A stretch of 64,000 nucleotides of DNA. Source: an uncultured delta proteobacterium (GTDB lineage Bacteria > Desulfobacterota > Desulfobacteria > Desulfobacterales > JAHEIW01). Below the pieces are notes generated by a model that worked only from the letters and a program-made list of their open reading frames with translations, was not told where the DNA came from and ran no database searches. Made by a program: the position numbers and the translations under genes. Location of the stretch: NCBI GenBank assembly GCA_963706575.1, contig CAVPNL010000002.1, positions 1-64,000 on the forward strand, written 5' to 3'. The number at the start of each line of letters is the position of its first letter. The stretch's first letter is position 1. This document shows, piece by piece, positions 10 to 37,878 of this stretch.

Positions 10-972
10 ATGTTGATCGGGTCTAATGGAGATACCCTGGGTTCCATAGGCGGAGGCCGACTCGAGGCTGAAGCCCTTGAATCAGCATACGCTTTGCTCC
101 ATAAGTCGGGTGGTCTGCTTCTTGATATATCCATGACTGGACATGAAGTTGCGGAAACCGAAATGATCTGTGGTGGCCAAGCAAGAATTTATGTGGAATT
201 ACTGTCTTCGGAAGCCCTTCCTTTTATCAGAGAGCTTAATGAAAAATTTTCGAAAAAAATAGATGCCTTTTTTCTGACATGGATATGGATAGATAATAAG
301 AAGAGGTCTTTTAAAGAGACCCATTGTATCTTGGAACCAGCCGAAAAAATGAACGAAGAATCCAAGCTGCCACATGCAATAGCCGTCGAGGTCAACAAAG
401 CAATCGAACACGGGGATGTCACTGCGCTCATTTCTCATCCGGAAGGTGAAGGTTTTCTGTTTTTGGAGCCTCTCAGACGATCCTCCACCCTTTATATCTA
501 TGGCGGTGGGCATATTTCATTAGATCTTGCCTGGATGGCTGAGCGCGTTGGCTTTCAGGTAATTGTTGTTGACGACCGAAAGGCATTTGCTAATCGGGAT
601 AGATTCCCGATGGCATTGGACGTCTGGGTGGTTCCCTACAAAGAGGCGCTAAAGGATGTTGAACTGGGATACGACGACTTTGTTGTAATTGTGACGCGTG
701 GTCACCTCTTTGATCTGGATGTGCTAAGAGAAGTGATCGTTCAATCGCCGGAGTACATCGGCATGATCGGCAGCCGCCGTAAAAAGGCCATGATTTTTGG
801 CCAGCTTCAAAAGGAAGGCATTTCTCAAAAAAGACTCGACGCGGTCCATGCGCCGATCGGCCTTGACATAAAAGCTGAAACACCGGCGGAGATTTCCATT
901 AGTATCATAGCTGAAATGATCATGGTCCGAGCAGAAAGTAGAGGATCCGAGAAGAAAAATTGGCATGTCTGA
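10..972 (+). CDS. xdhC: XdhC/CoxI family molybdenum-enzyme accessory protein (5' end probably outside window)
   Basis: GSIGGGRLE, MICGG, LYIYGGGHIS, VIVTRGH, YIGMIGSRRK and APIGLDIKAETPAEISISIIAE motifs typical of XdhC. Confidence 0.9.
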   Translation: MLIGSNGDTLGSIGGGRLEAEALESAYALLHKSGGLLLDISMTGHEVAETEMICGGQARIYVELLSSEALPFIRELNEKFSKKIDAFFLTWIWIDNKKRSFKETHCILEPAEKMNEESKLPHAIAVEVNKAIEHGDVTALISHPEGEGFLFLEPLRRSSTLYIYGGGHISLDLAWMAERVGFQVIVVDDRKAFANRDRFPMALDVWVVPYKEALKDVELGYDDFVVIVTRGHLFDLDVLREVIVQSPEYIGMIGSRRKKAMIFGQLQKEGISQKRLDAVHAPIGLDIKAETPAEISISIIAEMIMVRAESRGSEKKNWHV

Positions 973-1230
973 CGGAACTCTGTCTCAGTTACGGCTTGGG
1001 TGGTAAAAGAATTATAGGCAACCATGACCACAACTCTTACAAAAAGACATCTGTATTTGGTATTTTGAAAAGGGTGGCAAAGTCTGCACCGAACTCGTCC
1101 CAGATTGAGCTAACGCCAGATCAACAGCATTGAATCCTTTTTGACTTTTGCTAAGGGTAGATTGAACAAGTTATACGGAATTGTTGATTCTATTCTTATT
1201 TTCATTCAAAAGAATATGAGTTTAGTTTAT

Positions 1231-2791
1231 ATGGATATTTCGCACCAGAACCTTATCTTGATCAATACCAATATTATAACCCTAGATCCATTCTCTCCTC
1301 AGGCTACCTGGGTAGCAATCAAGAATGATAAAATCGTCACAACCGGACACGGAAAAGATTGGAAAAATTTTAAATATAAAAATACCGGCATTATCGACTG
1401 CAGAAAAAAAACAGTTATCCCAGGCCTCATCGATGCCCACCTTCATCTTGTCTCCTATGCCAAAAGCTTTGTAACACCGGACCTCAGTCCGGGCAAGAAT
1501 GTTCATTCGATCTCAGATATTCAATCAATTTTTAAGAACTGTGCGCGCAACCGGTCATCCGGCCAATGGATCTTTGGCAGAGGGTATAATGAATTCTATT
1601 TGGCAGAAAAGCGACATCCCTCCCGCTGGGACCTTGATAAGGTAACGCCGGGCCATCCCGTCCGGCTAACACATCGATCGGGACACGCCCATGTTCTCAA
1701 CACCTTGGCGCTTAAGCTTATTGGGATGACCGGAGAAACCGGTGATCCGGAGGGCGGCATGATTGAGCGGGATTTGAAAACAGGTGAGCCGACTGGATTA
1801 CTCTACGAAATGGGAGATTTTTTATCTGATCGAGTTCTCCCGTTTGCCCCGGCAGAGCTTGAAAAGGGTTTACAGCTTGGCGGAATAGAACTTATTTCTC
1901 TGGGCTGCAACAAGTGTCCAGGATGCATCATCCCGCAACGATACGCAGCAATTCGAAACTTTCAATCCTGGAAAGAATCCGGCATTCTGCAACCCCCGGT
2001 GAATCTGATGCTGGGAATTTATGGTTTTAAAAACAATAACAAGCAATACCATTCAATCAAGTTAATCGAAAACCAACTGCGGTTGGGTGCCGTCAAAATT
2101 ATTGTGGATGATACCACCGGCCAGCTGCATCCATCTCAGTCGGAATTAAACGAAATGGTGTTCGAGGTCCATCATGCCGGGCAGCAAATTGCTATTCATG
2201 CGCTCGAAGAAAAAGCTGTCAATGCTGCCTTCGCCAGGCCATCGAATTTGCCCTGGAGAAGTCTCCCGCAAAAGACCACCGCCACGCACCGAGCACTGCT
2301 CCGTGGTGTCGCCGGATTTAGCCCGCAAAATCGCATCCCTTGATATCACGGTGGTGACCCAACCCGCATTTATCTATTTTCACGGTGAACGCTTTCTCGA
2401 CACCGTCCCAGATGAGCAATTGAAACATCTGTACCCGATCAGAACCCTTCTTGATCATGGAATCAACGTCGCAGGGAGTTCGGATTGTCCGATTGTGCCG
2501 CCTGACCCTTTGATCGGAATAAATGCGGCGATGCGAAGATTGACTACAACAGGAGACATTGTCGGCGGCAAAGAGAAAATCCAGCCCACCGCCGCGTTGC
2601 AGATGTACACCCTGAATGCCGCCCGGGCCACTTTTGAAGAAACCATTAAAGGTACCATCACACCGGGGAAACTCGACAGTCTGGTGGTCTTGAACGCTGA
2701 CCCAACCCGACTTATGGCGGATGAGTTCAGAAACCTGCAGGTTGATAAGACAATTATCGGAGGAAAAGTTGTTTGGGAAAGAAATCGATAG
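1231..2791 (+). CDS. Amidohydrolase family 3 (YtcJ-like), frameshifted
   Basis: VIPGLIDAHLH, SGHAHVLNTLAL, GEPTGLLYE, IAIHA, EHCS, AGSSDCP, GTITPGK, TIIGGKVVW; split across ORFs 1141..2343 and 2174..2791. Confidence 0.85.
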
Positions 2792-2983: not shown

Positions 2984-4173
2984 TTAGGCGATGATCCCCT
3001 GCTCAATATACGATCGAATGGTGGTCTTCTTCATACCGAGCAATTCTTCAAAAACGTATTGATTTGCTTCGCCGAGGAGGGGGGAAGCCTTCCTGGGTGC
3101 TTGGCGACAATTTTTAAATCTAATGGGGTATGTATCTGTTTTTATCTCACCCAGGACCGGATGTTTCAGGGAAGTGAAAAAATTATTGGCGAATAGCTGG
3201 CGGATCGTTGGCCAAATCCTCAGCATTCTGAACGACACCGGCTGCAATGCCCGCTTGCTGAAGACTGGCTGCCACGTCTTCGGCCGTCTGTCCCGCCGTC
3301 CACTCACCAATATGTCTATCCAGTATTTCCTTATGCTTCTTCCGGCCTGCCAGGAATGTAAACTTATCCTCCTCAGACCAGGCGGGATGTCCAAGAACGC
3401 CGAGCAGCGATTGCCATTCATCTTCGGTATAAACTGCGATGACGCACCAGCGATCCTCTCCCGAACATTTATAACAGCCGTAGGGCGCCGCAGGTCGTTG
3501 TTGGGCTTCGTTTCCTTCAGGCACAATCTGATTTTGATTAAAGCCTGCATCTATCAGAGCCGGGCCGATCGTAGTGCAGACGGCTTCATATTCGGATAGA
3601 TCGATGGATTGACCCTGCCCGCATCGGTCGCGATGTTCCAGGGCTGCCAGAATTGAGATCGCTCCATATAGTCCGGAGATTATGTCTGCGTGGGCATAGC
3701 CTAAGCCCATTGGAGCCTCCCGGGAGTAGGACGTAAGATAGGTAAGTCCTCCCAGTGATTGCACCGTGGGTCCGTAGGCAACAAAATCTTTCCATGGTCC
3801 GTTCTGCCCGGTCGCCGACATGCTTAACATAATGAGATTTTCGTTCGACTTTATGAGGGTAGCATAATCCAGATCCCAGTTTGACATCACACGGGGTGAA
3901 AAGTTTTCCACCACGATATCGCTGATTTTAACCAGTTTTAAAAATATCTCCCTGGCCTCGTGTTGATCCATATCCAGGGTAATACTTCTTTTGTTTCGAT
4001 TCCAGGGCGCAAAAATACGGTGTTGTATTCGACTCGATCCCCGTTGCCATTTTGGCCGATTGGACCTTGATCACCTCGGCGCCAAAGTCTGCCAGCAGGC
4101 GCGTGGTATACGGTCCGGCCACAATGCGGGTAAGATCAACAACTCGTAATCCCTTGAGGATAGCTGATTGCAT
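2984..4173 (-). CDS. Family III (CaiB/BaiF) CoA-transferase, BbsF-like subunit with catalytic Asp, frameshifted
   Basis: [66 protein letters not shown]; three ORF pieces. Confidence 0.85.
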
Positions 4174-4183
4174 AAGACCTTAT

Positions 4184-5400
4184 TTAGATGACATGGTTGC
4201 TATAAAGCCATTTCATATTTTTTCCCGATAAGCCCAGCTCCTGCCGATAGATCATCTCATTGTGCTCACCGGGCTGAGGCGCGGGATTGATCCGGGCATC
4301 AATATTGCCGCTCGTTTTATATGGAGTGCCGGGGAAGCTGACGGTTTTTCCAGATCCGGCCTCTTTTTGTTCAATGAAAAAATTGCGTGCTTTGAGCTGG
4401 GGACAATTGATGACGTCATTCGGCGTTCGAACCGGTGCCCACGGAAACCGCATCAATTGCGCCAGCTCAAAAATCTCATCAACCCTATGTGTGATTGTCC
4501 ATTTCTCCAAAACCGCAATAACGTGTTCCAGGTTTTGGCGCTGTAGCCTTCATCCAGCCATTTTTCATCTACCAGATCTTCGGCCATGCCTTCAGTTGCC
4601 AGCCACTCAATCAAGGTTTTCCATTTTTGAAAAAGCGTCACATGGATGAAGCCGTCCTGGCATGGCAGGATAACAAAGCCTTCATTCCAGTGAAGGCTCT
4701 CCTGCCTCCGGTAAATGATGCCTTCTGTAAAATAACGAACCATGACATGTTCCAGGGTCGCGGTGACGGAGGCCTGCAAAGAAATATCAAGGTGTTCACC
4801 GGTTCCTGTTTTCGCCCGGTTGCGCACTGCCAGGAGAATAGCGGTTGCCGCAAATAACGAGGCCGCATAATACGATTGATCGCCGAAAGATTTAAGTGGG
4901 GGGGCGGACGGAGATCCGCAAACGTACATCTGCCCCCCGTAAGCGGAGGCTACCAGGTCGCTGGTTTTATAATCTCTTCGGGGGCCATTTTGCCCAAAAC
5001 CGGTAACGGATGCCAAAATGAGTTTTGGATTGAAGCTGCTGAGGGCTTCATAATCCAGCCCCAGCCGGGTTTGATCCTCCAGGGCGAAGGTATGAACGAC
5101 CACATCGGTGTCCGCCACCAGCTTCGAAAAAATCGATTGGCCTTTGTCTTGCTCCAGATCCAGAGTGATGGACAGTTTGTTGATATTGCTGTAAAAAAAG
5201 GGGATGCTGTCTTTCGAGCGGGATTTGTCTTTAAAGAAAGGGCCTATATTTCGTGAGGCATCGCCGCCGGGTTTTTCCACCTTAATGACACGCGCCCCCA
5301 TATCTGCCAGGAGCCTGGTGCAAAAACTGGCTTTTTCATCGGCAAAATCTAAAATACGCAAACAATGTAAAAAACCATTTTGGTTGGCAGCTAATTCCAT
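4184..5400 (-). CDS. Family III CoA-transferase, BbsE-like subunit, frameshifted
   Basis: LRILDFADEKASFCTRLLADMGARVIKVEKPGGD, SVTGFGQNGP, PAPQPGEHN; no Asp at the usual catalytic position (GDQSYYAASLF). Confidence 0.85.
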
Positions 5401-5405
5401 CTTGC

Positions 5406-6365
5406 TTAATTATTCAATCGTTTGAGAATATATTCATATCCCTCAACCAATTGTCGAACCACGTCCCCGGCCGGAAGTATATGCTTGATTAATCCGGCCG
5501 ATGCACCGCAGTAAGCTTCGCCGCCATTCAGATTGCCCTCTATCTGGGCGGTTCGGTTGCTGCGATAGCCAATGAATTCTTTAATATCCCCGGCGGCGGC
5601 CCCTGATCTCTCGAGCTCCAGGATGGTGTTTGTGAATTTTGTCTTCAGGCTTCTGGTCGGCACAATGCTGCGGCCCGTTATCACCGTATCCGTATCCCGG
5701 GCATCCACAATGGCCTGCTTGTAATTCAGGTGGGCTGCATTTTCATTAACCGCGATAAAACGGGTTCCCAGTTGCACCGCTTCCGCTCCAAGGGCAAAGG
5801 CGGCAACCACGCCCCTGGCATCCGCAATGCCGCCGGCCGCAATTACCGGAATGGATATCGCATCAACCACCTGTGGGATCAATGCAAATAGCGGCAATTC
5901 ATCCGCTCCGTTATGGGCGCCGGCTTCAATACCCTCGGCAATCACACCATCGACACCACAGGATTCGGCTTTTCGGGCCTGTTTAACCGAGCTTGAAACA
6001 TGCAACACGGTTACCCCTGCGTTCTTCAGAACGTCTGCAAATCGAGCTGGATTGCCAGCAGCCGTTATTACAATTTTCACTTTTTCACCAAGGGCAACTT
6101 CCACCAGTAAATCCGCATAGTCCAAATCCAGCGCAATATTTACCCCGAAGGGTCTGGCAGTCAGCCGTTTAATTCTGGACAACTGGTCTTTGAAGTTTTT
6201 GGCCGGCACACCCTCTTTTTCCATCCCGGCCAGGGGGCTGATCACTCCTAACGCGCCGGCATTTGACACCGCTGCCGCAAGATCAGCAGTCGCGATCCAT
6301 AACATGCCGCCCTGGAGAATGGGGAAATCTATGTCCAAAAGATCACAAACCCGTGTGCGCCGCAT
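5406..6365 (-). CDS. Nitronate monooxygenase / FabK-like FMN oxidoreductase
   Basis: TRVCDLLDIDFPILQGGM, AVSNAGALG, EGIEAGAH, PVIAAGGIADARG, VQLGTRF. Start taken at MRRTRV (6365); the 6518 extension overlaps a real small gene. Confidence 0.85.
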   Translation of the reverse strand: MRRTRVCDLLDIDFPILQGGMLWIATADLAAAVSNAGALGVISPLAGMEKEGVPAKNFKDQLSRIKRLTARPFGVNIALDLDYADLLVEVALGEKVKIVITAAGNPARFADVLKNAGVTVLHVSSSVKQARKAESCGVDGVIAEGIEAGAHNGADELPLFALIPQVVDAISIPVIAAGGIADARGVVAAFALGAEAVQLGTRFIAVNENAAHLNYKQAIVDARDTDTVITGRSIVPTRSLKTKFTNTILELERSGAAAGDIKEFIGYRSNRTAQIEGNLNGGEAYCGASAGLIKHILPAGDVVRQLVEGYEYILKRLNN

Positions 6366-6387
6366 CAATGTTGCCTTTGTTTTGGAA

Positions 6388-6528
6388 CTAATCGGATGAC
6401 TTCTCTTTATTAGGTTGCTGCAATTCCATCTTTTTTCCACAACACACCGCATCACCGTCAGCCGGCTTGGTGCAAAGAATCTCTGTACCGCAGGCCTCAC
6501 AACGATATCGTTTCCCAAGCTGTACCAT
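6388..6528 (-). CDS. Desulforedoxin-like mini-protein, 46 aa (not in ORF track)
   Basis: Manual translation MVQLGKRYRCEACGTEILCTKPADGDAVCCGKKMELQQPNKEKSSD; CxxC-x15-CC; GGAGG RBS upstream. Confidence 0.85.
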   Translation of the reverse strand: MVQLGKRYRCEACGTEILCTKPADGDAVCCGKKMELQQPNKEKSSD

Positions 6529-6580
6529 GAACGTTTACCTCCACATTACGTGTTTTGAAAGGTGTTATTAATTACAAGTT

Positions 6581-6700
6581 TTACTTCTTGATTTCCATCT
6601 TTTTCCCGCAGCAATGCAGCTCCCCGTCACCGCCACGGGTCACGATAAATTCTGCCCCACACACCGTGCAGACATATCTTTTCCCAACTTGATTTGCCAT
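6581..6700 (-). CDS. Desulforedoxin-like mini-protein, 39 aa (not in ORF track)
   Basis: Manual translation MANQVGKRYVCTVCGAEFIVTRGGDGELHCCGKKMEIKK; CxxC-x15-CC; GGGAG RBS upstream. Confidence 0.85.
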   Translation of the reverse strand: MANQVGKRYVCTVCGAEFIVTRGGDGELHCCGKKMEIKK

Positions 6701-6796
6701 GTTTTCACTTATCTCCCTATTTAATATTGAATTATCCTGCCCGAGCCGCAGGCGTCAAAGCTTATTTATTTTACATTCGAGGACGAAACAAACAGA

Positions 6797-8084
6797 TTAA
6801 AGCTTTCCGTATTTTTCTTTGAGCTTCTTTTTCAGAACTTTCCCCATCGGATTGCGTGGCAGTGAATCTATGAAAAAGACAGACCCGGGCCTTTTAAAAC
6901 CGGCCAGCCGGGATCGGCAATGCGCCAAAACTTCATCCGTGTCGGCGTCTTCTCCTTTTTTGAGAACCACGATCGCACAAGGCTCTTGGCCCCAATCGGG
7001 ATGCGGGATGCCGATGACTGCCGCCTCATCGATTTTGGGGTGGGCGTGCAGGACGTCTTCCACTTCTTCCGGGGAAATATTCTTCCCCCCCGCGGATGAT
7101 CATGTCATCACCGCGACCGGCCAGGTAAATATACCCATCCTCATCCATCCATCCCTTATCACCGGTTCGCAACCACCCGTCGGCGGTGATCACCTGGGCA
7201 CTCTTGTCCGCATCCCCCCAGTAACCCTTCATCATTCGGGGTCCGGCAAAAATCTCGCCAACCTGGTTGGCATGCAGTGCAGTGCCTTTATCATCGACAA
7301 TTTTCACTTCCACATCCGCCAGGGGGCCTCCCAATGGAGGCGGCCAGACGTTTGAGCTTCTTTACCTTATCGGCCTCTGTCCCTTCAATAATGTGGTCTG
7401 CGGGACCCAAAATCGTAATTGTCGATGCGGTTTCGGTCTGACCAAAGGCATTAATAAACCGTACCCCGGGCATTTCCTCAATGGCTTTTTGAATAACATT
7501 CAATGGCATGGGCGCCGCCCCGTAAGTGATGACCCGCAGGCTAGACAAATCATAATTGTGAAAGTCGGGATTCTCGATCACCCATTTTAACATGGTTGGC
7601 ACCAGCATTGCCCGCGTCACTTTTTCTTCCTGCGCCGTCTTCAGCCACTCCTTCACCTCAAACTGACGCATCAGGACCAACGTGCGCCCTCCGTATATCC
7701 CGGCTAAAACAGCCTGCATCCCGGCCACATGGTAAAGCGGCACCGTCAGCAGATTCCTTTCTTCAATCTCCGGACTGGCCGGCTCTACATTGCCCAGGAT
7801 ATCCGGGGAAACAAATCCGCTGTGCGTCAACGGAACCCCTTTAGGCCGCCCGGTTGTCCCGGCGGTATACATTAAAATAGTGATGTCATCATCACCAATT
7901 TCAGCCGTCGCTTCATCCGAACTGGCGGAATCGATCAGGTCCTCATAAAAAGGGTTTCATCCCCTCGCACATCGACACTAATGCAGGTCTTGACCGAGGG
8001 CAACTGCGGCAGTATCCCTTTAACCATATCAAAATACCGTGCTCCTGTCAGCAAAACGGCTGCTTCGGCATTACCAATCATATG
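6797..8084 (-). CDS. Acyl-CoA synthetase (AMP-forming), frameshifted and 5'-truncated
   Basis: MYTAGTTGRPKGV, NAFGQTET, GWLRTGD, GRGDDMIIRGGE, LPRNPMGKVLK. Ligase-like sequence extends upstream only to HMIGNAEAAVLL at ~8084; the N-terminus is missing. Confidence 0.8.
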
Positions 8085-9433
8085 TTCTATTTGAAAACAA
8101 TAATATTGTAGTCCCTTTAGATGTTGTAAAAATATTTAGCAAGATGATCGAGTTTGAGCTATGGACGACCAAGCCGAACGGAAAGATTCCGCTTTTGGGT
8201 GATTCAGCTTTAGAGGATACCCATCAGCGTTTTTTGGCCATACGTGGCGGCCCGCCTTTTTTGAAGAGAAAAGATCTGAAACCGATCTCACCAACGCCCG
8301 AGGAATCTGAAATCTGGTTGTTAGGAAAAAAACGGATACAAGAATATGATAGCCTAGCTTCCGAGCCCGCTATGCTGAATTCAAGGTCTTTTCCGGAAGG
8401 AGGATATTTTGTCATGCGTGAAGGGCAGGATCCTCAATCTTTATATCTTTTGTTTGATTGTGGCCCTTTTGGCTATCCGCTTGCGCCTAATCACGGGCAT
8501 GCGGATGCGTTAAGCTTTGAAATACATGCTTGCGGACAAACGATATTGGTCGACCCAGGATATTATAGCGCTCATTTAGGAAATGACTGGCGAAATTTCT
8601 TTCGCGGGACGCATGCGCACAACACGATTGTGGTCGATAATCAGGATCAATCCTTGCTATTAGATACGCGCAGGGTACATCATCCGGCACAGGCCGAATT
8701 ACATAAATGGATAACAAGTGAGCACTTTGACTTTGTCGATGGTTCGCATAGCGGGTACAGACGGTTGCGAGAACCCATAAAACATCGCCGTCAAATTTTT
8801 TTTGTGAAATCCGAGTATTGGATCGTGATAGATGTGTTAACCGGTTCGGGAACACACACCTTTGATTCATTCTATCATATGATGCCGCATATTGAGACCC
8901 ATTTAGATAAAGAAACAGGATGCCTGAGGTGCAGCAACCAGAATGAAACCCTGTTTTATATAGTGCCCCTTTATTATAGAAATCTACAAGTCGATATTCT
9001 ATTGGGCAAAGCAAAACCTTTTCAAGGATGGGTTTCTCTTTATTCCGGTGAAAAGCAACCTGCGCCGGTATTGCGATATCGGAAAAAAACTTCAGCTCCT
9101 GCTGAATTTTGCACGGTAATCTACCCATGCGGTTCTACTCTAAAATCAGGGATTGCGGCCAGATCCGTAAATGTTAGAATTGATAATTCGCAAGCGAATA
9201 ATGAAGGAACAATCTCAGCTGTACGAATCGAAACGGACATGAATACGGATTATTTAGTCGTGGATAGAGGAAACAGTGGAACCCGAAAATTTTTTGACAA
9301 ATTTGAGACTGACGGACAGCTGGTGTATCTCCGGTTAGACAAGGAGGCCAGACAAATATTAAGGGCGATACAGATAGGGGGGGATTTTATGTATTTTAAA
9401 AACAAACCCATTACCGGATCCCTCCTGACTTAA
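8080..9433 (+). CDS. Heparinase II/III family protein, N-terminally truncated
   Basis: PNGKIPLLGDS, FPEGGYFVMR, HGHADALSF, LVDPGYY, FRGTHAHNTI; starts mid-domain with no RBS or plausible start. Confidence 0.8.
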
Positions 9434-9529
9434 TCCTGCTGCTGAATCTGGTTAACGCCGGCAACACAAAGCTATACCGTCAATTGTCAAAATTCTGTTA
9501 GGCAAGAAGCCATCTTAAAAACGGTTATT

Positions 9530-10741
9530 ATGAAAAAAAAGATCGCTTATATAATGGGGGAATTTCCCTATTTGACAACCACGTTTATCGATCGGGAAAT
9601 CCTTGAAGTAGAGAGAAACGGAATAAATCTCGTTTTAATTTCTATTCGGCAGCCGGATCCCTTTGAAATGACGCCAGAAGTAAGGCGTTTAGCCCAAAAA
9701 ACCAAATATATTCTTCCGGTAACCTGGTATAAGTTTTTGATGGCCAATTTATACCTGATGATAACCCGGGCCAAAGACTATTTTTCTACTCTTTTTTACC
9801 TTTTAACAGGGCCTCACGATAAGTTAAGTCTCAGAGCAAAAACAATACTGCATTTTGCTGAAGGAATCCGCGCTGCCGAAATATTAATCGCTGAGGGTGT
9901 AAATCATATACACGCCCACTTTGCCGATCGTGCGGCAATTGCAGCATTGGTTGCTTCAAGAATACTAAAAATCCCGTATAGTCTTACTGCCCATGCCAAT
10001 GATATTTATGTGTCACCAGTTATGTTATCGGAAAAGATAAAAAATGCGAAATTTACAACAACCTGTACTGCTTATAATAGGGATTATCTGGAAAGAAAAA
10101 TTGGGCAACGGGTTGAACTTATTTATCATGGAATTGAAATAAACGATAAGCATCCTGGTTCTCGGAAGCCAAAAAATGAGAGCTGTGCGCCTCTTATTCT
10201 TTCTGTCGGGCAATTAAATGAAAAGAAAGGTTTCTCATATCTTCTTGAAGCATGCGGCATTTTGAAATCACAGGGACGAAATATTCGATGTGAGATTATA
10301 GGTGAAGGCCCAGGGAGAAAAGATTTGCTCAGGCTCATTGATAACTTGGCCATAGATAAGACGGTCAGCCTCTGCGGAGCGCTGTCAAACGATGAAGTAA
10401 TGGCCAGATATGCCCAAGCCGATATTTTTGTATTACCCTGTGTTGTCGCCAGTGACAATGGCCGAGATGGAATTCCCAACGTGATCATCGAGGCTATGGC
10501 CAATCGATTGCCGGTCATATCCACCAGACTTTCCGGTATTCCGGAGGTGGTTGAACATAATGTCAACGGGCTATTGGTGCCTCCCAATGATTCGGCGGCA
10601 TTGGCAGCTGCGATTGCCAAACTATTGGATCAATACAAGCTTTGCGTTCGGTTGGGTTTGCAAGGACGCCTGAAAGTGGAACAAAATTTCGATATAAGGA
10701 AAAATACAAATTTTTTTATCGAGTTGTTGATGGGGATTTAA
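9530..10741 (+). CDS. Glycosyltransferase family 4 (WcaL-like)
   Basis: FPYLTTTFIDREI, HIHAHFA, SLTAHANDI, ILSVGQLNEKKG, DGIPNVIIEAMA. Confidence 0.9.
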   Translation: MKKKIAYIMGEFPYLTTTFIDREILEVERNGINLVLISIRQPDPFEMTPEVRRLAQKTKYILPVTWYKFLMANLYLMITRAKDYFSTLFYLLTGPHDKLSLRAKTILHFAEGIRAAEILIAEGVNHIHAHFADRAAIAALVASRILKIPYSLTAHANDIYVSPVMLSEKIKNAKFTTTCTAYNRDYLERKIGQRVELIYHGIEINDKHPGSRKPKNESCAPLILSVGQLNEKKGFSYLLEACGILKSQGRNIRCEIIGEGPGRKDLLRLIDNLAIDKTVSLCGALSNDEVMARYAQADIFVLPCVVASDNGRDGIPNVIIEAMANRLPVISTRLSGIPEVVEHNVNGLLVPPNDSAALAAAIAKLLDQYKLCVRLGLQGRLKVEQNFDIRKNTNFFIELLMGI

Positions 10742-34132: not shown

Positions 34133-34339
34133 ATGGCAGACATGCAAGTTTATGAATGTGTCAATTGCGGGAACACCGTCGAGGTCGGCGCGGAAGAATC
34201 AAAATTACCTGAATGTTGTGGCAACGCGATGAAGCCGGTTGAAGATTTAAAAGCCTGCGGATTAAGCACGACTGCGGAGCATTCCCGCTTCGATGATTTT
34301 GATGAACCCTGCGATGATGGCCGATCGGGAAAGATTTAG
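34133..34339 (+). CDS. Desulforedoxin-like protein with acidic Cys/His tail (68 aa)
   Basis: MADMQVYECVNCG-..-ECCGNAM (CxxC-x15-CC) plus C..AEHSR..DEPCDDGR; GGAGG RBS. Confidence 0.75.
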   Translation: MADMQVYECVNCGNTVEVGAEESKLPECCGNAMKPVEDLKACGLSTTAEHSRFDDFDEPCDDGRSGKI

Positions 34340-34529: not shown

Positions 34530-34602
34530 ACTATTTGAGAAGTTCTTTATGATCTCGATATAATTTTGGTTTTTCACGCCGGCTATTGATGAGGTATTGC
34601 TT

Positions 34603-36123
34603 ATGAACATATCGAATATCATCAAACAGCATGTGGACGAGCACCCAAACGAGACGGCGATTATTTTTGAAGAACTACGCCTGACCTATGGGGAACTTGA
34701 TCGGTTGATTAATCGGGTTGCCGGTGGACTGCTAAAAAGGGGTTTAATGCGCGGGGACGTGTTGTCGTTATTTTTGCCGAGTATTCCGGAGTTGATCATC
34801 GGTTATCTGGCGGCGGTTCGGGCGGGGCTGATAGTTAATGTGGTAAACGCCATGCTCAGGGAACAGGAGGTGGCCTATATTTTGAAGGATTGTGCCACCC
34901 GGGCCGTATTGGTGGATACGAAACGGCTGTCAATACTGGAAGCAATAAGGCCAGAGGTTGAATCCCTAAATTCGGTGATTGTGCTTGGAAAGTCGGGAAG
35001 CGATCAATATGACACCTATGAATCCGTGCTGGATTCGGGTAAAGACCAATTCGAACCTGTTGACTTCCAAGACGGGGACCTGTGTCATCTGATGTACACA
35101 TCGGGTACTACCGGCCGGCCTAAAGGCGTTATGGCCACCCATCGAAATGTCTGGCACAACGCCACCCATTTTGGGAACGTTCACTTTCAAGCAACGGACA
35201 CCATCATGGTGGCCACGCCAATCTTTCATTGCTGGGGTCTGGTCAACGGAACCTTTGGGATGCTGTCTAAAGGGGGAACCGTGATCACGGTGGAGCGGTT
35301 TTATCCTGATCGGGCCTTAAACGATATTGAACGCCTTAAACCAACGATTTTTCAAGGTGTGCCGCCCATGTTCAACCTGTTGCTTCGGCAGCCGGAATTG
35401 GACAAGCGCGAGATCTCCTCGGTCGTCTTTTGTCTTTCAGCAGCCACCAAGATGCCGGAAAATTTGATTCATCAAGTAGAACAACGGCTCAACTGGCGTT
35501 ATGCGGAGGCCTGGGGCCTTACCGAGGTCTCTTGCGTGGGCACGACCGCACCTTATAAAGACACCCGCATCGGTTCCTGCGGCAGGGGCATGGACGATGG
35601 CGAGATCAAGGTGGTGGATGAGCAAGGTGCTATTTTACCCGTCGGACAACAGGGAGAATTGTGTATTCGCGGGACTTGCGTGACGAAAGGGTATCTTAAC
35701 AAACCGGAAGCCACAAAAGAGGCTTTCGATACCGAAGGCTGGTTTCATTCCGGTGACGTCGCCTACATGGACACAGAGGGTTACGCTTACATTGTGGACC
35801 GCAAAAAGGATATGATCAATGTGGGCGGTGAGAAGGTGTTCCCGTCAGAGGTCGAGGACATGATGTTATCCCACGCCAAGATTAAGGATCTGGTGATTGT
35901 GGGCATCCCCGACGATCTTAAAGGCGAAGCGCCCAAGGCCTTCATCGTGCTTCGAGAGGGAGAAGCCGCCACGGAAGAGGAAATTCGAGCACATTGTAAA
36001 GAAAAAATGGCCCCTTACAAAGTGCCGGTGGCGGTTGAATTTATTGAGGAGGTGCCGCGCGCTGCATCGGGCAAGGCCCTGAGGCGATTGCTGCGGGACA
36101 AAGAGTGGGGCAAATGCGATTAA
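34603..36123 (+). CDS. Acyl-CoA synthetase (AMP-forming)
   Basis: MYTSGTTGRPKGV, AWGLTE, GWFHSGD, DRKKDMINVGGEKV, PRAASGK; intact ORF. Confidence 0.92.
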   Translation: MNISNIIKQHVDEHPNETAIIFEELRLTYGELDRLINRVAGGLLKRGLMRGDVLSLFLPSIPELIIGYLAAVRAGLIVNVVNAMLREQEVAYILKDCATRAVLVDTKRLSILEAIRPEVESLNSVIVLGKSGSDQYDTYESVLDSGKDQFEPVDFQDGDLCHLMYTSGTTGRPKGVMATHRNVWHNATHFGNVHFQATDTIMVATPIFHCWGLVNGTFGMLSKGGTVITVERFYPDRALNDIERLKPTIFQGVPPMFNLLLRQPELDKREISSVVFCLSAATKMPENLIHQVEQRLNWRYAEAWGLTEVSCVGTTAPYKDTRIGSCGRGMDDGEIKVVDEQGAILPVGQQGELCIRGTCVTKGYLNKPEATKEAFDTEGWFHSGDVAYMDTEGYAYIVDRKKDMINVGGEKVFPSEVEDMMLSHAKIKDLVIVGIPDDLKGEAPKAFIVLREGEAATEEEIRAHCKEKMAPYKVPVAVEFIEEVPRAASGKALRRLLRDKEWGKCD

Positions 36124-36298: not shown

Positions 36299-37120
36299 AT
36301 GAAAAAGGTATTGACCAGTCTCGAGGAGGCGGCCAGGCTTGTTCAGGACGGCGACCTGGTAACCTTCGGCGGGGCGACCTTCCACCGGGCTCCGATGGAG
36401 TTTGTGCGGGAGCTGGTGCGCCAGGGGAAAAAAGAGCTGAATCTGATAGACCGCGAACCGGCCATGGACTTTGATCTGCTCATCGGTGCCGGCTGCGTTG
36501 CCAAAGTGCGCACCGGCATGCTGGCCTTTGAGGTCTTTGGAATGGCCCCCAATTTTCGCAAAAAGTCGGAGAAAGGTGAAATCGTCACGAAAGAAGGGGC
36601 CTGCCAGCCGATCATTGCCGGATTTCGTGCTGCCGCGATGGGCCTGCCGTCGCTACCCGTGAAAGGGATGCTGGGCTCCGATCTGCTGACGATCAGCGAG
36701 GTGGTCGGCAGCCAGACAGAGATTAAGGACCCTTTCACCGGCGAAACGATGATTGCCGTCCGGGCCATTGAACCGGATATTGCGATTATTCACGCCCAAA
36801 AGGCGGACGAATACGGCAACATAAGGATCGAGGGGCCTTTTTATGAAGACGTCATCAAAGCCAAGGCGGCCAAAAAAGTGGTGGTAACCGTCGAAGAGCT
36901 GATTTCCAACCGTGATATCAGAAAAATGCCGCAGGCCACAACCATACCGCACTTTATTGTGGATGCCGTCGTGGAAACGCCTAAAGGCGCCTATCCGTGC
37001 TCCTGCTTTAATTATTATGATGCGGACTATGATCACATCAAGGCATACCTCAAGGCAGCAGCTCAGGATCAATTTGAACAATATTTGGATAACAACGTCT
37101 ACAGGAGGGCAAGTGCATGA
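36299..37120 (+). CDS. Family I CoA-transferase subunit A (GctA/CatI-like)
   Basis: VQDGD..FGG..RAPM, DLLIGAG, AAAMGLP, PDIAIIHAQKADEYGN, P.GAYPCS. Confidence 0.88.
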   Translation: MKKVLTSLEEAARLVQDGDLVTFGGATFHRAPMEFVRELVRQGKKELNLIDREPAMDFDLLIGAGCVAKVRTGMLAFEVFGMAPNFRKKSEKGEIVTKEGACQPIIAGFRAAAMGLPSLPVKGMLGSDLLTISEVVGSQTEIKDPFTGETMIAVRAIEPDIAIIHAQKADEYGNIRIEGPFYEDVIKAKAAKKVVVTVEELISNRDIRKMPQATTIPHFIVDAVVETPKGAYPCSCFNYYDADYDHIKAYLKAAAQDQFEQYLDNNVYRRASA

Positions 37121-37878
37121 ATGCAAGGATCGAGACACCGGATTTGATGATCTATGCCATGGCCTTGGAGATCGAGAATTTCAACACCGTGCTTCATGGG
37201 GTTTCTTCACCCCTGCCGGTTCTGGCCATGAGCGTAGCGCGCAAAACCCACGCACCGGATATGGCCTATATTTCAGGAGCAGAGGGAGTCGACCCTGAGA
37301 TTGACCGGATTTACCCATCATCCTTCGATCCGCGTTTGAATCGGAATGCAGTGGCTTACTTCGGGCTGCACGAGGCATTTGACCTGGCCCAGCGGGGTGA
37401 GCTCGATGTTATGTTTTTGGGGGCGGCTCAGGTCGACTGTAATGGCAATACCAATCTCAGCCTCATCGGAGATGTTGAGCGGCCCAAAGTTCAACTGCCG
37501 GGCGGGGCGGCTTCGGCCTTTTTGATGCCCATCACGCCAAAGGTTGTGGTCTGGGTCACGCGGCATTCCAACAGGGTTTTTGTTGAGGAAGTGGATTTTG
37601 TGACCGGCCAAGGCTATAATCATCGTTCTGAGGAGTATAAAGTAAATGAGATTGTGGTCATATCCAATCTGGCCGTGATGAACTTTAAAAATCCGGAGAG
37701 GGCGATGCAGATTCAGTATTATCATCCGGGCCACACGATTGAGGAGATCAAGGATAGCACCGGCTTTGATCTTCGGGTGGCGCCGGATGCATCGGAAACC
37801 CCGGCCCCAACTCAGGATATCCTTGACTTCATTGCGGAAATTGACCGGGACGGTGTACGACTGAGCGAATTCCATTAA
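37117..37878 (+). CDS. Family I CoA-transferase subunit B (GctB/CatJ-like)
   Basis: ARKTHAP, DVMFLGAAQVD.NGNTN, LPGGAA, FVEEVDFVT, STGFDL; ATGA overlap with subunit A. Confidence 0.88.
   Translation: MNARIETPDLMIYAMALEIENFNTVLHGVSSPLPVLAMSVARKTHAPDMAYISGAEGVDPEIDRIYPSSFDPRLNRNAVAYFGLHEAFDLAQRGELDVMFLGAAQVDCNGNTNLSLIGDVERPKVQLPGGAASAFLMPITPKVVVWVTRHSNRVFVEEVDFVTGQGYNHRSEEYKVNEIVVISNLAVMNFKNPERAMQIQYYHPGHTIEEIKDSTGFDLRVAPDASETPAPTQDILDFIAEIDRDGVRLSEFH

Follow-up and report, generated by a model that had tools for sequence, protein, structure and literature searches.

We analysed a window of 64,000 nucleotides (positions 1 to 64,000 of contig CAVPNL010000002.1, assembly GCA_963706575.1) from an uncultured delta proteobacterium of the Desulfobacterales, phylum Desulfobacterota, in which two minus-strand genes encode desulforedoxin-like mini-proteins of 39 (half A) and 46 amino acids (half B). 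In them, the desulforedoxin fold has been put to a new use within an uncharacterised coenzyme A (CoA)-ester module; this reuse is real, widespread and so far undescribed. The constant partners of the mini-proteins, as judged by sequence comparison, are one clade of acyl-CoA ligases, a crotonase, an Amidohydro_3 enzyme and a BbsF-like CoA-transferase. We tentatively propose that the two halves form a non-redox partner of the ligase. An original prediction, made from the letters of the window, had suggested an electron carrier or an accessory component of an anaerobic pathway, and of these two roles the accessory one is probably correct. No description of the family was found in the full-text literature that we searched, which did not extend to subscription papers and supplements.

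Each mini-gene is preceded by a purine-rich ribosome-binding site (GGGAG and GGAGG), both genes point the same way and both products contain CxxC-x15-CC, all as originally predicted; the halves are 53% identical over 36 residues. Against Pfam PF06397, half A scored 32.7 bits and half B 30.3 bits (gathering score: 23), and the ratio of nonsynonymous to synonymous polymorphism (pN/pS), calculated against relatives of at least 70% identity, was 0.167 (49 sequences) and 0.178 (14 sequences). Because both proteins pass the Pfam cut-off and pN/pS is 0.17-0.18, comparative evidence indicates that both genes are real. The strict motif pattern matched twice in the whole 5.7 Mb genome, at halves A and B, and not at all in 100 base shuffles of the window. 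One contig of the RNA library X11 was identical to positions 6532-6718, which is weak support for transcription of the half A region and may reflect DNA; contigs of this kind are uninformative on expression level and strand, and parts that they leave uncovered count as no evidence. A sigma-70-like promoter match upstream of half A was not above chance (10 matches found vs 7.6±3.1 in shuffles of the region).

Half A ends in KK and carries no tail, and half B has a fifth cysteine, in the dipeptide LC, and a C-terminal arm ending in SSD. An extra cysteine and a KSSD tail had been predicted on one half; cysteine and tail are both present, and KSSD proved to be a local variant of the usual tail, P(L)PSSD. 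Both halves are net basic (7 basic and 4 acidic residues in A, 8 and 7 in B), while fused relatives are mildly acidic (mean −3.4).

A profile search over 1.84 billion representatives returned 1041 cluster representatives at E≤0.001, a number that includes ordinary desulforedoxin domains, and 195 at 1e-10. Many of the best 150 representatives are natural A-B fusions of 80-120 amino acids, and we conclude from these fusions that A and B are two halves of one unit, in line with the predicted joint action of the two paralogues. In the split form, half A has four cysteines in 79 of 79 parsed copies and mostly ends in KK; five copies were not parsed, and three of the 103 sequences sorted as B were A copies mis-sorted by length. 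The 100 true split B halves all carry the fifth cysteine and end in SSD (99) or SAD (1), and the CC pair is present in 102 of the 103 sequences sorted as B, the remaining one having CH. Of 80 fusions taken from named genomes, 79 close with SSD, ASD or TSD and one is frameshifted, so that the terminal Asp is found in 100/100 split B halves and 79/80 fusions. The tail pattern closes 104 of the 150 representatives; the others comprise A halves, sequences whose end was wrongly called, and a subgroup of fusions in which the tail is different.

The cysteines behave differently in the two forms. None of 50 aligned fused copies retains CxxC or CC, and the fused copy of genome G200 has no cysteine at all; the fused set was retrieved with a cysteine-poor query, so these counts mean that ligand loss is common in one branch and do not give a family-wide frequency. 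The expectation that the cysteines are conserved thus holds for split forms and fails for the aligned fusions. In an alignment of 27 fusions, the only invariant positions are G61, R63 and the terminal D102. The fifth cysteine is kept in 48 of 50 fused copies; its absence from G200 and several representatives makes a function as acyl-accepting thiol doubtful. The system occurs in Rhodococcus, Nocardia, Sphingobium, Streptomyces and Mycobacterium and is not limited to anaerobes, contrary to the anaerobic pathway of the original prediction. Viral contigs contained no real relative and plasmids none of the split form, and all clusters retrieved from the ESM Atlas were either hypothetical or PF06397.

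The AlphaFold model of the fused Rhodococcus opacus protein is confident (pLDDT 93.9, pTM 0.83) and has two domains, its least confident part being the tail arm (pLDDT 84 then 67, vs 90-98). Among 48,161 chains compared in a wide VIA search, the best structural match was desulforedoxin 1cfw (0.8 Å over 36 aligned residues; Z 3.7, a low value that reflects the 36-residue target), and Foldseek found no PDB match at E≤0.001. The model thus suggests that fold and tail persist where the metal site is gone. Two further architectures were seen among the representatives. P0043, P0079, P0095, P0115 and about 15 similar ones have an N-terminal extension of about 65 residues on a single tail-bearing domain, two of these records being named Candidatus Wildermuthbacteria and Nealsonbacteria. 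P0045, P0067, P0073, P0082, P0086 and P0091 are two-domain fusions with all eight cysteines and other tails (AAF, ASE, VSE and similar).

Homologues are linked to genes of CoA metabolism, as expected from the original prediction. A ligase gene lies within 400 nucleotides of the mini-gene in 63 of 80 fused genome loci (co-oriented in 60), in all seven plasmid loci read (of 19 records) and in 41 of 80 split metagenome loci, that is, 41 of the 53 long enough to judge. Among 20 loci chosen from the phylum and order of the window, the ligase is adjacent in 11 and separated by one crotonase gene in five, and three have no ligase nearby. Of the split loci, 38 extend far enough to show what adjoins the ligase, and in 36 of them it is a crotonase; relatives have a crotonase pair upstream of the ligase. 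The NMO/FabK-like flavoprotein is a variable neighbour and not a core member (19/80 split and 4/80 fused loci). The neighbours named in the original prediction, namely ligase, flavoprotein and CoA-transferase pair, were confirmed by profile matches; it had missed two core elements, the Amidohydro_3 gene just outside its interval and the crotonase pair, which in relatives lies in the part cut off here by the probable assembly join. Ordinary desulforedoxins from the same searches adjoin, by our reading of the sequences, genes for rubrerythrin, catalase and a Fur-like regulator.

Several details of these loci were recorded on the way. In five genomes of one lineage (L069, L071-L073, L079), A and B bracket an amidohydrolase-crotonase-ligase-crotonase block, with a GcvT/YgfZ-like folate-binding protein directly upstream of half B. 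As seen in L061 (1534-2250), half B is often followed by a tetratricopeptide repeat protein (24 of 80 split metagenome loci) and an alpha/beta hydrolase (11 of 80). In genome G129 (L068), family I CoA-transferase genes accompany a duplicated half A. Two apparent fusions to a ligase (P0171 and P0173), with one member each, were discarded as frameshift or read-through artefacts.

Co-occurrence across genomes extends the linkage beyond adjacent genes. The ligase scores above 500 bits in 18 of 401 genomes from the window's phylum, and 17 of these 18 carry the mini-protein family: the pair in 16 and a fused copy on another contig in G200, none being found in G396. Conversely, the ligase is present in 16 of 18 other genomes with the pair; the contig of G239 ends at the pair, and G209 is an exception. 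Nine weaker matches in this phylum, two of which were read, were left out of the count, being taken for ordinary domains of desulforedoxin or desulfoferrodoxin. Across 251 Actinomycetota genomes, fused mini-protein, ligase, crotonase and amidohydrolase coincide in one set of 14, to which the centre genome belongs, with the reservation that 6-19 candidates per genome were scored and related genomes are not independent. Beyond those 14, the ligase was found in G629, which has the split pair. The genes are often far apart (in G530, crotonase at 0.38 Mb and mini-protein at 4.39 Mb). Copy numbers of mini-protein and ligase in five genomes were 3/3, 2/2, 1/1, 2/1 and 2/1, while crotonase and amidohydrolase were single-copy; Rhodococcus opacus DSM 44188 has one copy of each searched gene. 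Controls were run on the 14 positive and 40 negative genomes, the latter mostly small. A neighbouring LLM oxidoreductase, used as control, did not track the module (7/14 at ≥54% identity; weaker matches in 10/40 negatives). G462, which is unpublished, entered these tallies only as one background genome.

The partner enzymes have intact catalytic motifs. The 32 sampled partner ligases form one clade (SH-like approximate likelihood ratio 99; quick IQ-TREE run with no approximately unbiased test), with one long-branch outsider inside, and none of the 27 other intact ligases encoded in the window's genome belongs to it; an initial FastTree, whose outgroup was poor, had left the clade unresolved. 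There were 4154 ligase clusters at E≤1e-150 among 8000 scored. All catalytic motifs are present, and so are R81 (91/91), W433 (88/91) and K/R466 (91/91), which we take to be the CoA-binding positions of 4-chlorobenzoate-CoA ligase. Because these are retained, CoA itself is probably the acyl acceptor. Residues R17, Y171, R210, W223 and R400 are specific to the clade; an insert after the A5 motif was rejected as a mark of partnership, as non-partner ligases have it too.

Split systems have two crotonases, one with the oxyanion motif and both glutamates and the other degenerate, and fused systems have one longer crotonase. The N-terminal part of the latter resembles the degenerate split crotonase only weakly (probability 1.8%, E 0.027), which serves as a lead. 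Across 52 active domains, R34 (51/52), R85 (52/52), E71-F72, E115 and E135 are shared. The metal ligands of the Amidohydro_3 enzyme are complete in 28 of 28 sequences. The CoA-transferase pair best matches chains A and B of benzylsuccinate CoA-transferase (9fn0; E about 1e-57, a moderate score), and one of its two subunits has the catalytic Asp, chain and Asp assignments having been made on the close orthologues L075, L076 and L096. Fused systems have a divergent Asp-bearing CoA-transferase beside the amidohydrolase. We considered whether the tail Asp replaces a residue missing from one of these enzymes and rejected this for the ligase (catalytic motifs already present), the amidohydrolase (all ligands present) and the CoA-transferase, since the transferase on the amidohydrolase side has its own Asp in all aligned fused-type loci.

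Sequence comparison shows directly that the genes are real, that they are fused in relatives, that ligands are lost and the tail is constant, and that the family is linked to and co-occurs with enzymes whose catalytic motifs are intact. From these data we infer heterodimer formation, ligase binding, activation and the type of substrate as follows. The halves would fold together into one pseudo-dimeric desulforedoxin-fold unit, as the natural fusions and the model suggest, and any bound metal, Fe or Zn, would be structural and dispensable. The working part would be the conserved GKRY/EVL(C)TK surface together with the fixed-length arm that ends in a free C-terminal Asp. The tail would dock non-covalently on the activating enzyme, and the unit would act as cognate activator or assembly subunit of the ligase, a reading to which we give slightly less than even weight. 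It would be the non-redox component of a five-part module with the ligase clade, a crotonase of one active and one degenerate domain, the Amidohydro_3 hydrolase and the BbsF-like CoA-transferase. These enzymes would then process a small anionic amide-bearing acyl substrate by amide hydrolysis, CoA activation and hydration. We favour docking on the ligase because the genes are adjacent, copy numbers follow the ligase and the ligase still looks CoA-using.

An analogy for such docking is MbtH. MbtH-like proteins are small non-catalytic partners that serve adenylation domains and are sometimes encoded elsewhere. The mini-protein genes likewise adjoin a particular group of adenylating enzymes, some copies lying at other places in the genome. 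They differ in that sequence and fold are unrelated, a conserved Trp is lacking, and the partner is a stand-alone CoA ligase in apparently catabolic clusters instead of a nonribosomal peptide synthetase domain; no Pfam or NCBIfam MbtH match was obtained for the window proteins or the relatives scanned, and neither window protein contains Trp. The likeness to benzylsuccinate CoA-transferase BbsEF (9fn0) concerns the neighbouring family III pair, with its single catalytic Asp; the scores are moderate, and no benzylsuccinate synthase or other bbs genes were seen nearby.

Some observations count against docking on the ligase. Twelve informative split loci have no ligase, most of them being a stand-alone A-B operon among housekeeping genes; in about a dozen such loci the flanking genes look Dehalococcoidia-like to us. 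Family I CoA-transferase A/B genes lie beside the pair in L063 (G209), L068 (G129), L074 (G057) and L138. In G209 (96% complete), which keeps the pair and both crotonases, the family I CoA-transferase replaces the ligase and no ligase of the clade was found, while G396 (90% complete, 450 contigs) has the ligase and no mini-protein was found there. Tail-bearing single-domain variants occur in Patescibacteria records. Finally, a neighbouring CoA-transferase family, used as control, tracks the same genomes (13/14 at E<1e-75 vs 0/40 negatives). Co-occurrence alone therefore does not name the direct partner, and the control suggests that the module, which is real, may lie within a larger metabolic package.

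We also weighed whether the unit is a covalent carrier, which we regard as unlikely. LysW, the model for such a function, combines a small metal-finger body with a flexible arm that ends in an acidic residue, in the sequence EDWGE. Here the ligase or CoA-transferase would activate the tail carboxylate or a tethered substrate, the crotonase would act on the tethered intermediate and the amidohydrolase would free the product by amide cleavage. The body, the constant-length flexible arm and the invariant terminal acid of the family all suit this, as does the strict association of the family with an enzyme that activates carboxylates by means of ATP and with an intact amidohydrolase (ligands complete in 28/28; the same 14 of 251 genomes), a combination with a counterpart in LysW systems. 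In chemical terms, a C-terminal Asp is an N-acyl-2-aminosuccinate, the kind of group that would fit a CoA-transferase of the benzylsuccinate type, and clade-specific arginines (R17, R210 and R400 of the ligase, R34 and R85 of the crotonase) point the same way. So do the stand-alone operons (L111, L121, L134, L155, L158, L166), with near-consensus TTGACA/TATAAT promoters upstream in four loci, the activating enzyme that looks swappable in G209 and, weakly, the lack of a convincing enzyme fusion among 8000 longer candidates.

On the other side, the activator is an adenylate-forming CoA ligase and not an ATP-grasp enzyme, and no ATP-grasp loader was recognised among the neighbours, where not every open reading frame was annotated and no genome-wide search was run. 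The ligase retains the residues taken to be CoA-binding, and we know of no precedent for a protein C-terminal aspartyl-CoA thioester. The family ends in Asp, not in the EDWGE of LysW, and the LysW/amino-group carrier protein profile NF041070 matched neither window half nor 10 of 11 relatives, the sole weak match being the outlier P0157. If the carrier function nevertheless held, the pair could, at the same low probability, be the founding member of a new carrier class that uses a C-terminal Asp as covalent handle in CoA-ester chemistry. It is similarly doubtful that a heteromeric crotonase and the BbsF-like transferase act on a tethered succinate-like unit that the amidohydrolase releases. Equally unlikely, that class would belong to a pathway, catabolic or amino-acyl, found in Desulfobacterota, Actinomycetota, Proteobacteria, Myxococcota and probably Chloroflexota. 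Charge also speaks against it: the halves are basic and the fusions only mildly acidic, unlike amino-group carrier proteins, which are strongly acidic and bind basic patches according to PMC11726168.

The originally predicted heterodimeric electron carrier, here taken as an Fe(Cys)4 protein that serves the flavoprotein or some other redox step, is very improbable. Split forms do keep the four ligands, two domains per unit and the spacing of desulforedoxin (1cfw/1dxg) and the N-terminal domain of desulfoferrodoxin, and PMC3116461 gives CXXCX15CC, for superoxide reductases only. However, ligand-free fusions occur in the same module and the flavoprotein is near in few loci. The metal ligands can thus be dispensed with, and none of the constant partners is a redox enzyme, which makes an electron carrier unlikely. 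Desulforedoxin is a homodimer, whereas this family has two unequal halves or a fusion, an invariant Asp-ending arm and a linkage to CoA-ester enzymes. Moreover, the mini-proteins scored 21.6 and 21.5 bits with the desulforedoxin model TIGR00319 (curated cut-off: 36.05) and 24-26 bits with the desulfoferrodoxin model TIGR00320 (146.9), lacking its C-terminal superoxide reductase domain; a separate 130-codon desulfoferrodoxin-type frame lies elsewhere in the genome (C6). Also improbable, if less so, is a regulatory function, in which the unit would be an adaptor or a metal/redox sensor and its tail would inhibit or target one enzyme of the module, for instance by mimicking an N-acyl-aspartate in the active site of amidohydrolase or crotonase. 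Stand-alone loci with their own promoter, the bracketed block of the five genomes and tail-bearing variants outside the module would fit such a role, but near one-to-one presence with the ligase in two phyla better suits an essential component, and the metal site is lost in aerobes. The mini-proteins are PF06397-fold members that fall outside the desulforedoxin, desulfoferrodoxin, LysW and MbtH families; by analogy, their mode of action may resemble that of an MbtH-type partner or of a carrier of the LysW type.

Table 1. Features of the window at and around the mini-genes.
Feature	Position	Strand	Evidence
Mini-protein half A, desulforedoxin fold, CxxC-x15-CC, ends in KK	6581..6700	-	PF06397; X11 contig (weak)
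Mini-protein half B, desulforedoxin fold, fifth Cys, arm ending in SSD	6388..6528	-	PF06397, alignments
Class I adenylate-forming acyl-CoA ligase (AMP-binding), partner clade; 5' part lost	6797..8083	-	Profile, tree, comparison with L061
NMO/FabK-like flavoprotein, variable neighbour, not core	5406..6365	-	Profiles, neighbour counts
Family III CoA-transferase subunit without catalytic Asp	4184..5400	-	CoA_transf_3; 9fn0 chain A is best match of orthologue
Family III CoA-transferase subunit with catalytic Asp	2984..4173	-	CoA_transf_3; 9fn0 chain B is best match of orthologue
Metal-dependent amidohydrolase (Amidohydro_3), core member, convergent with the operon, frameshifted here	1141..2791	+	Profile, alignments, co-occurrence
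Sigma-70-like match TTGACG-16-GATAAT, 10/12, just upstream of half A	6731..6758	-	At chance level
Probable chimeric assembly join between ligase and low-GC polysaccharide region	8083..8084	.	Contigs of public runs

The locus itself is damaged in this assembly. The ligase breaks off at the join, short of about 90 N-terminal residues, and is followed by heparinase II/III and glycosyltransferase genes at a G+C content of about 0.35-0.43, DNA that may stem from elsewhere in the genome or from another organism. Beyond 8083, contigs of the public runs X1 and X11 carry on with DNA that matches the ligase of two relatives, L094 and L096, and the stretch 8244-9600 is not covered by any of four public runs, suggesting that the join is probably a chimeric assembly error; a strain-specific rearrangement is the less probable explanation. 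Neither the missing ligase N-terminus nor the crotonase pair turned up in other parts of the assembly. Short-read contigs differ from the window at seven indel positions (3199, 4005, 4540, 7083, 7244, 7322 and 7946/7951), so that the frameshifts in ligase and transferases are probably sequencing errors. Since join and frameshifts break the locus, the intact operon was studied in relatives; the window ligase is 51-76% identical to that of L061 in four pieces. The flavoprotein scores below the FabK cut-off (318 vs 453).

Two other genes of the window were recorded. A third desulforedoxin-like open reading frame (34133-34339, plus strand, 68 amino acids), with CxxC...CC and an acidic tail, scores 19.2 bits with PF06397, below the cut-off, and lies upstream of another acyl-CoA ligase (34597-36123) and CoA-transferase pair (36299-37878); it belongs to a different subfamily without the SSD tail. 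An XdhC-family gene (10-972, plus strand) lies upstream of the amidohydrolase and was not recognised as a regular neighbour in related loci.

Our findings describe a large and unnamed protein family and a five-part CoA-ester module that is present in sediment anaerobes as well as in culturable Rhodococcus, Sphingobium and Mycobacterium, and in which a textbook iron-redox fold is reused without metal. If the covalent carrier were true, it would be a categorically new kind of carrier chemistry, bringing LysW-like logic into a catabolic or amino-acyl pathway. If instead the mini-proteins are a required partner of the ligase, a whole clade of ligases would look inactive when expressed alone.

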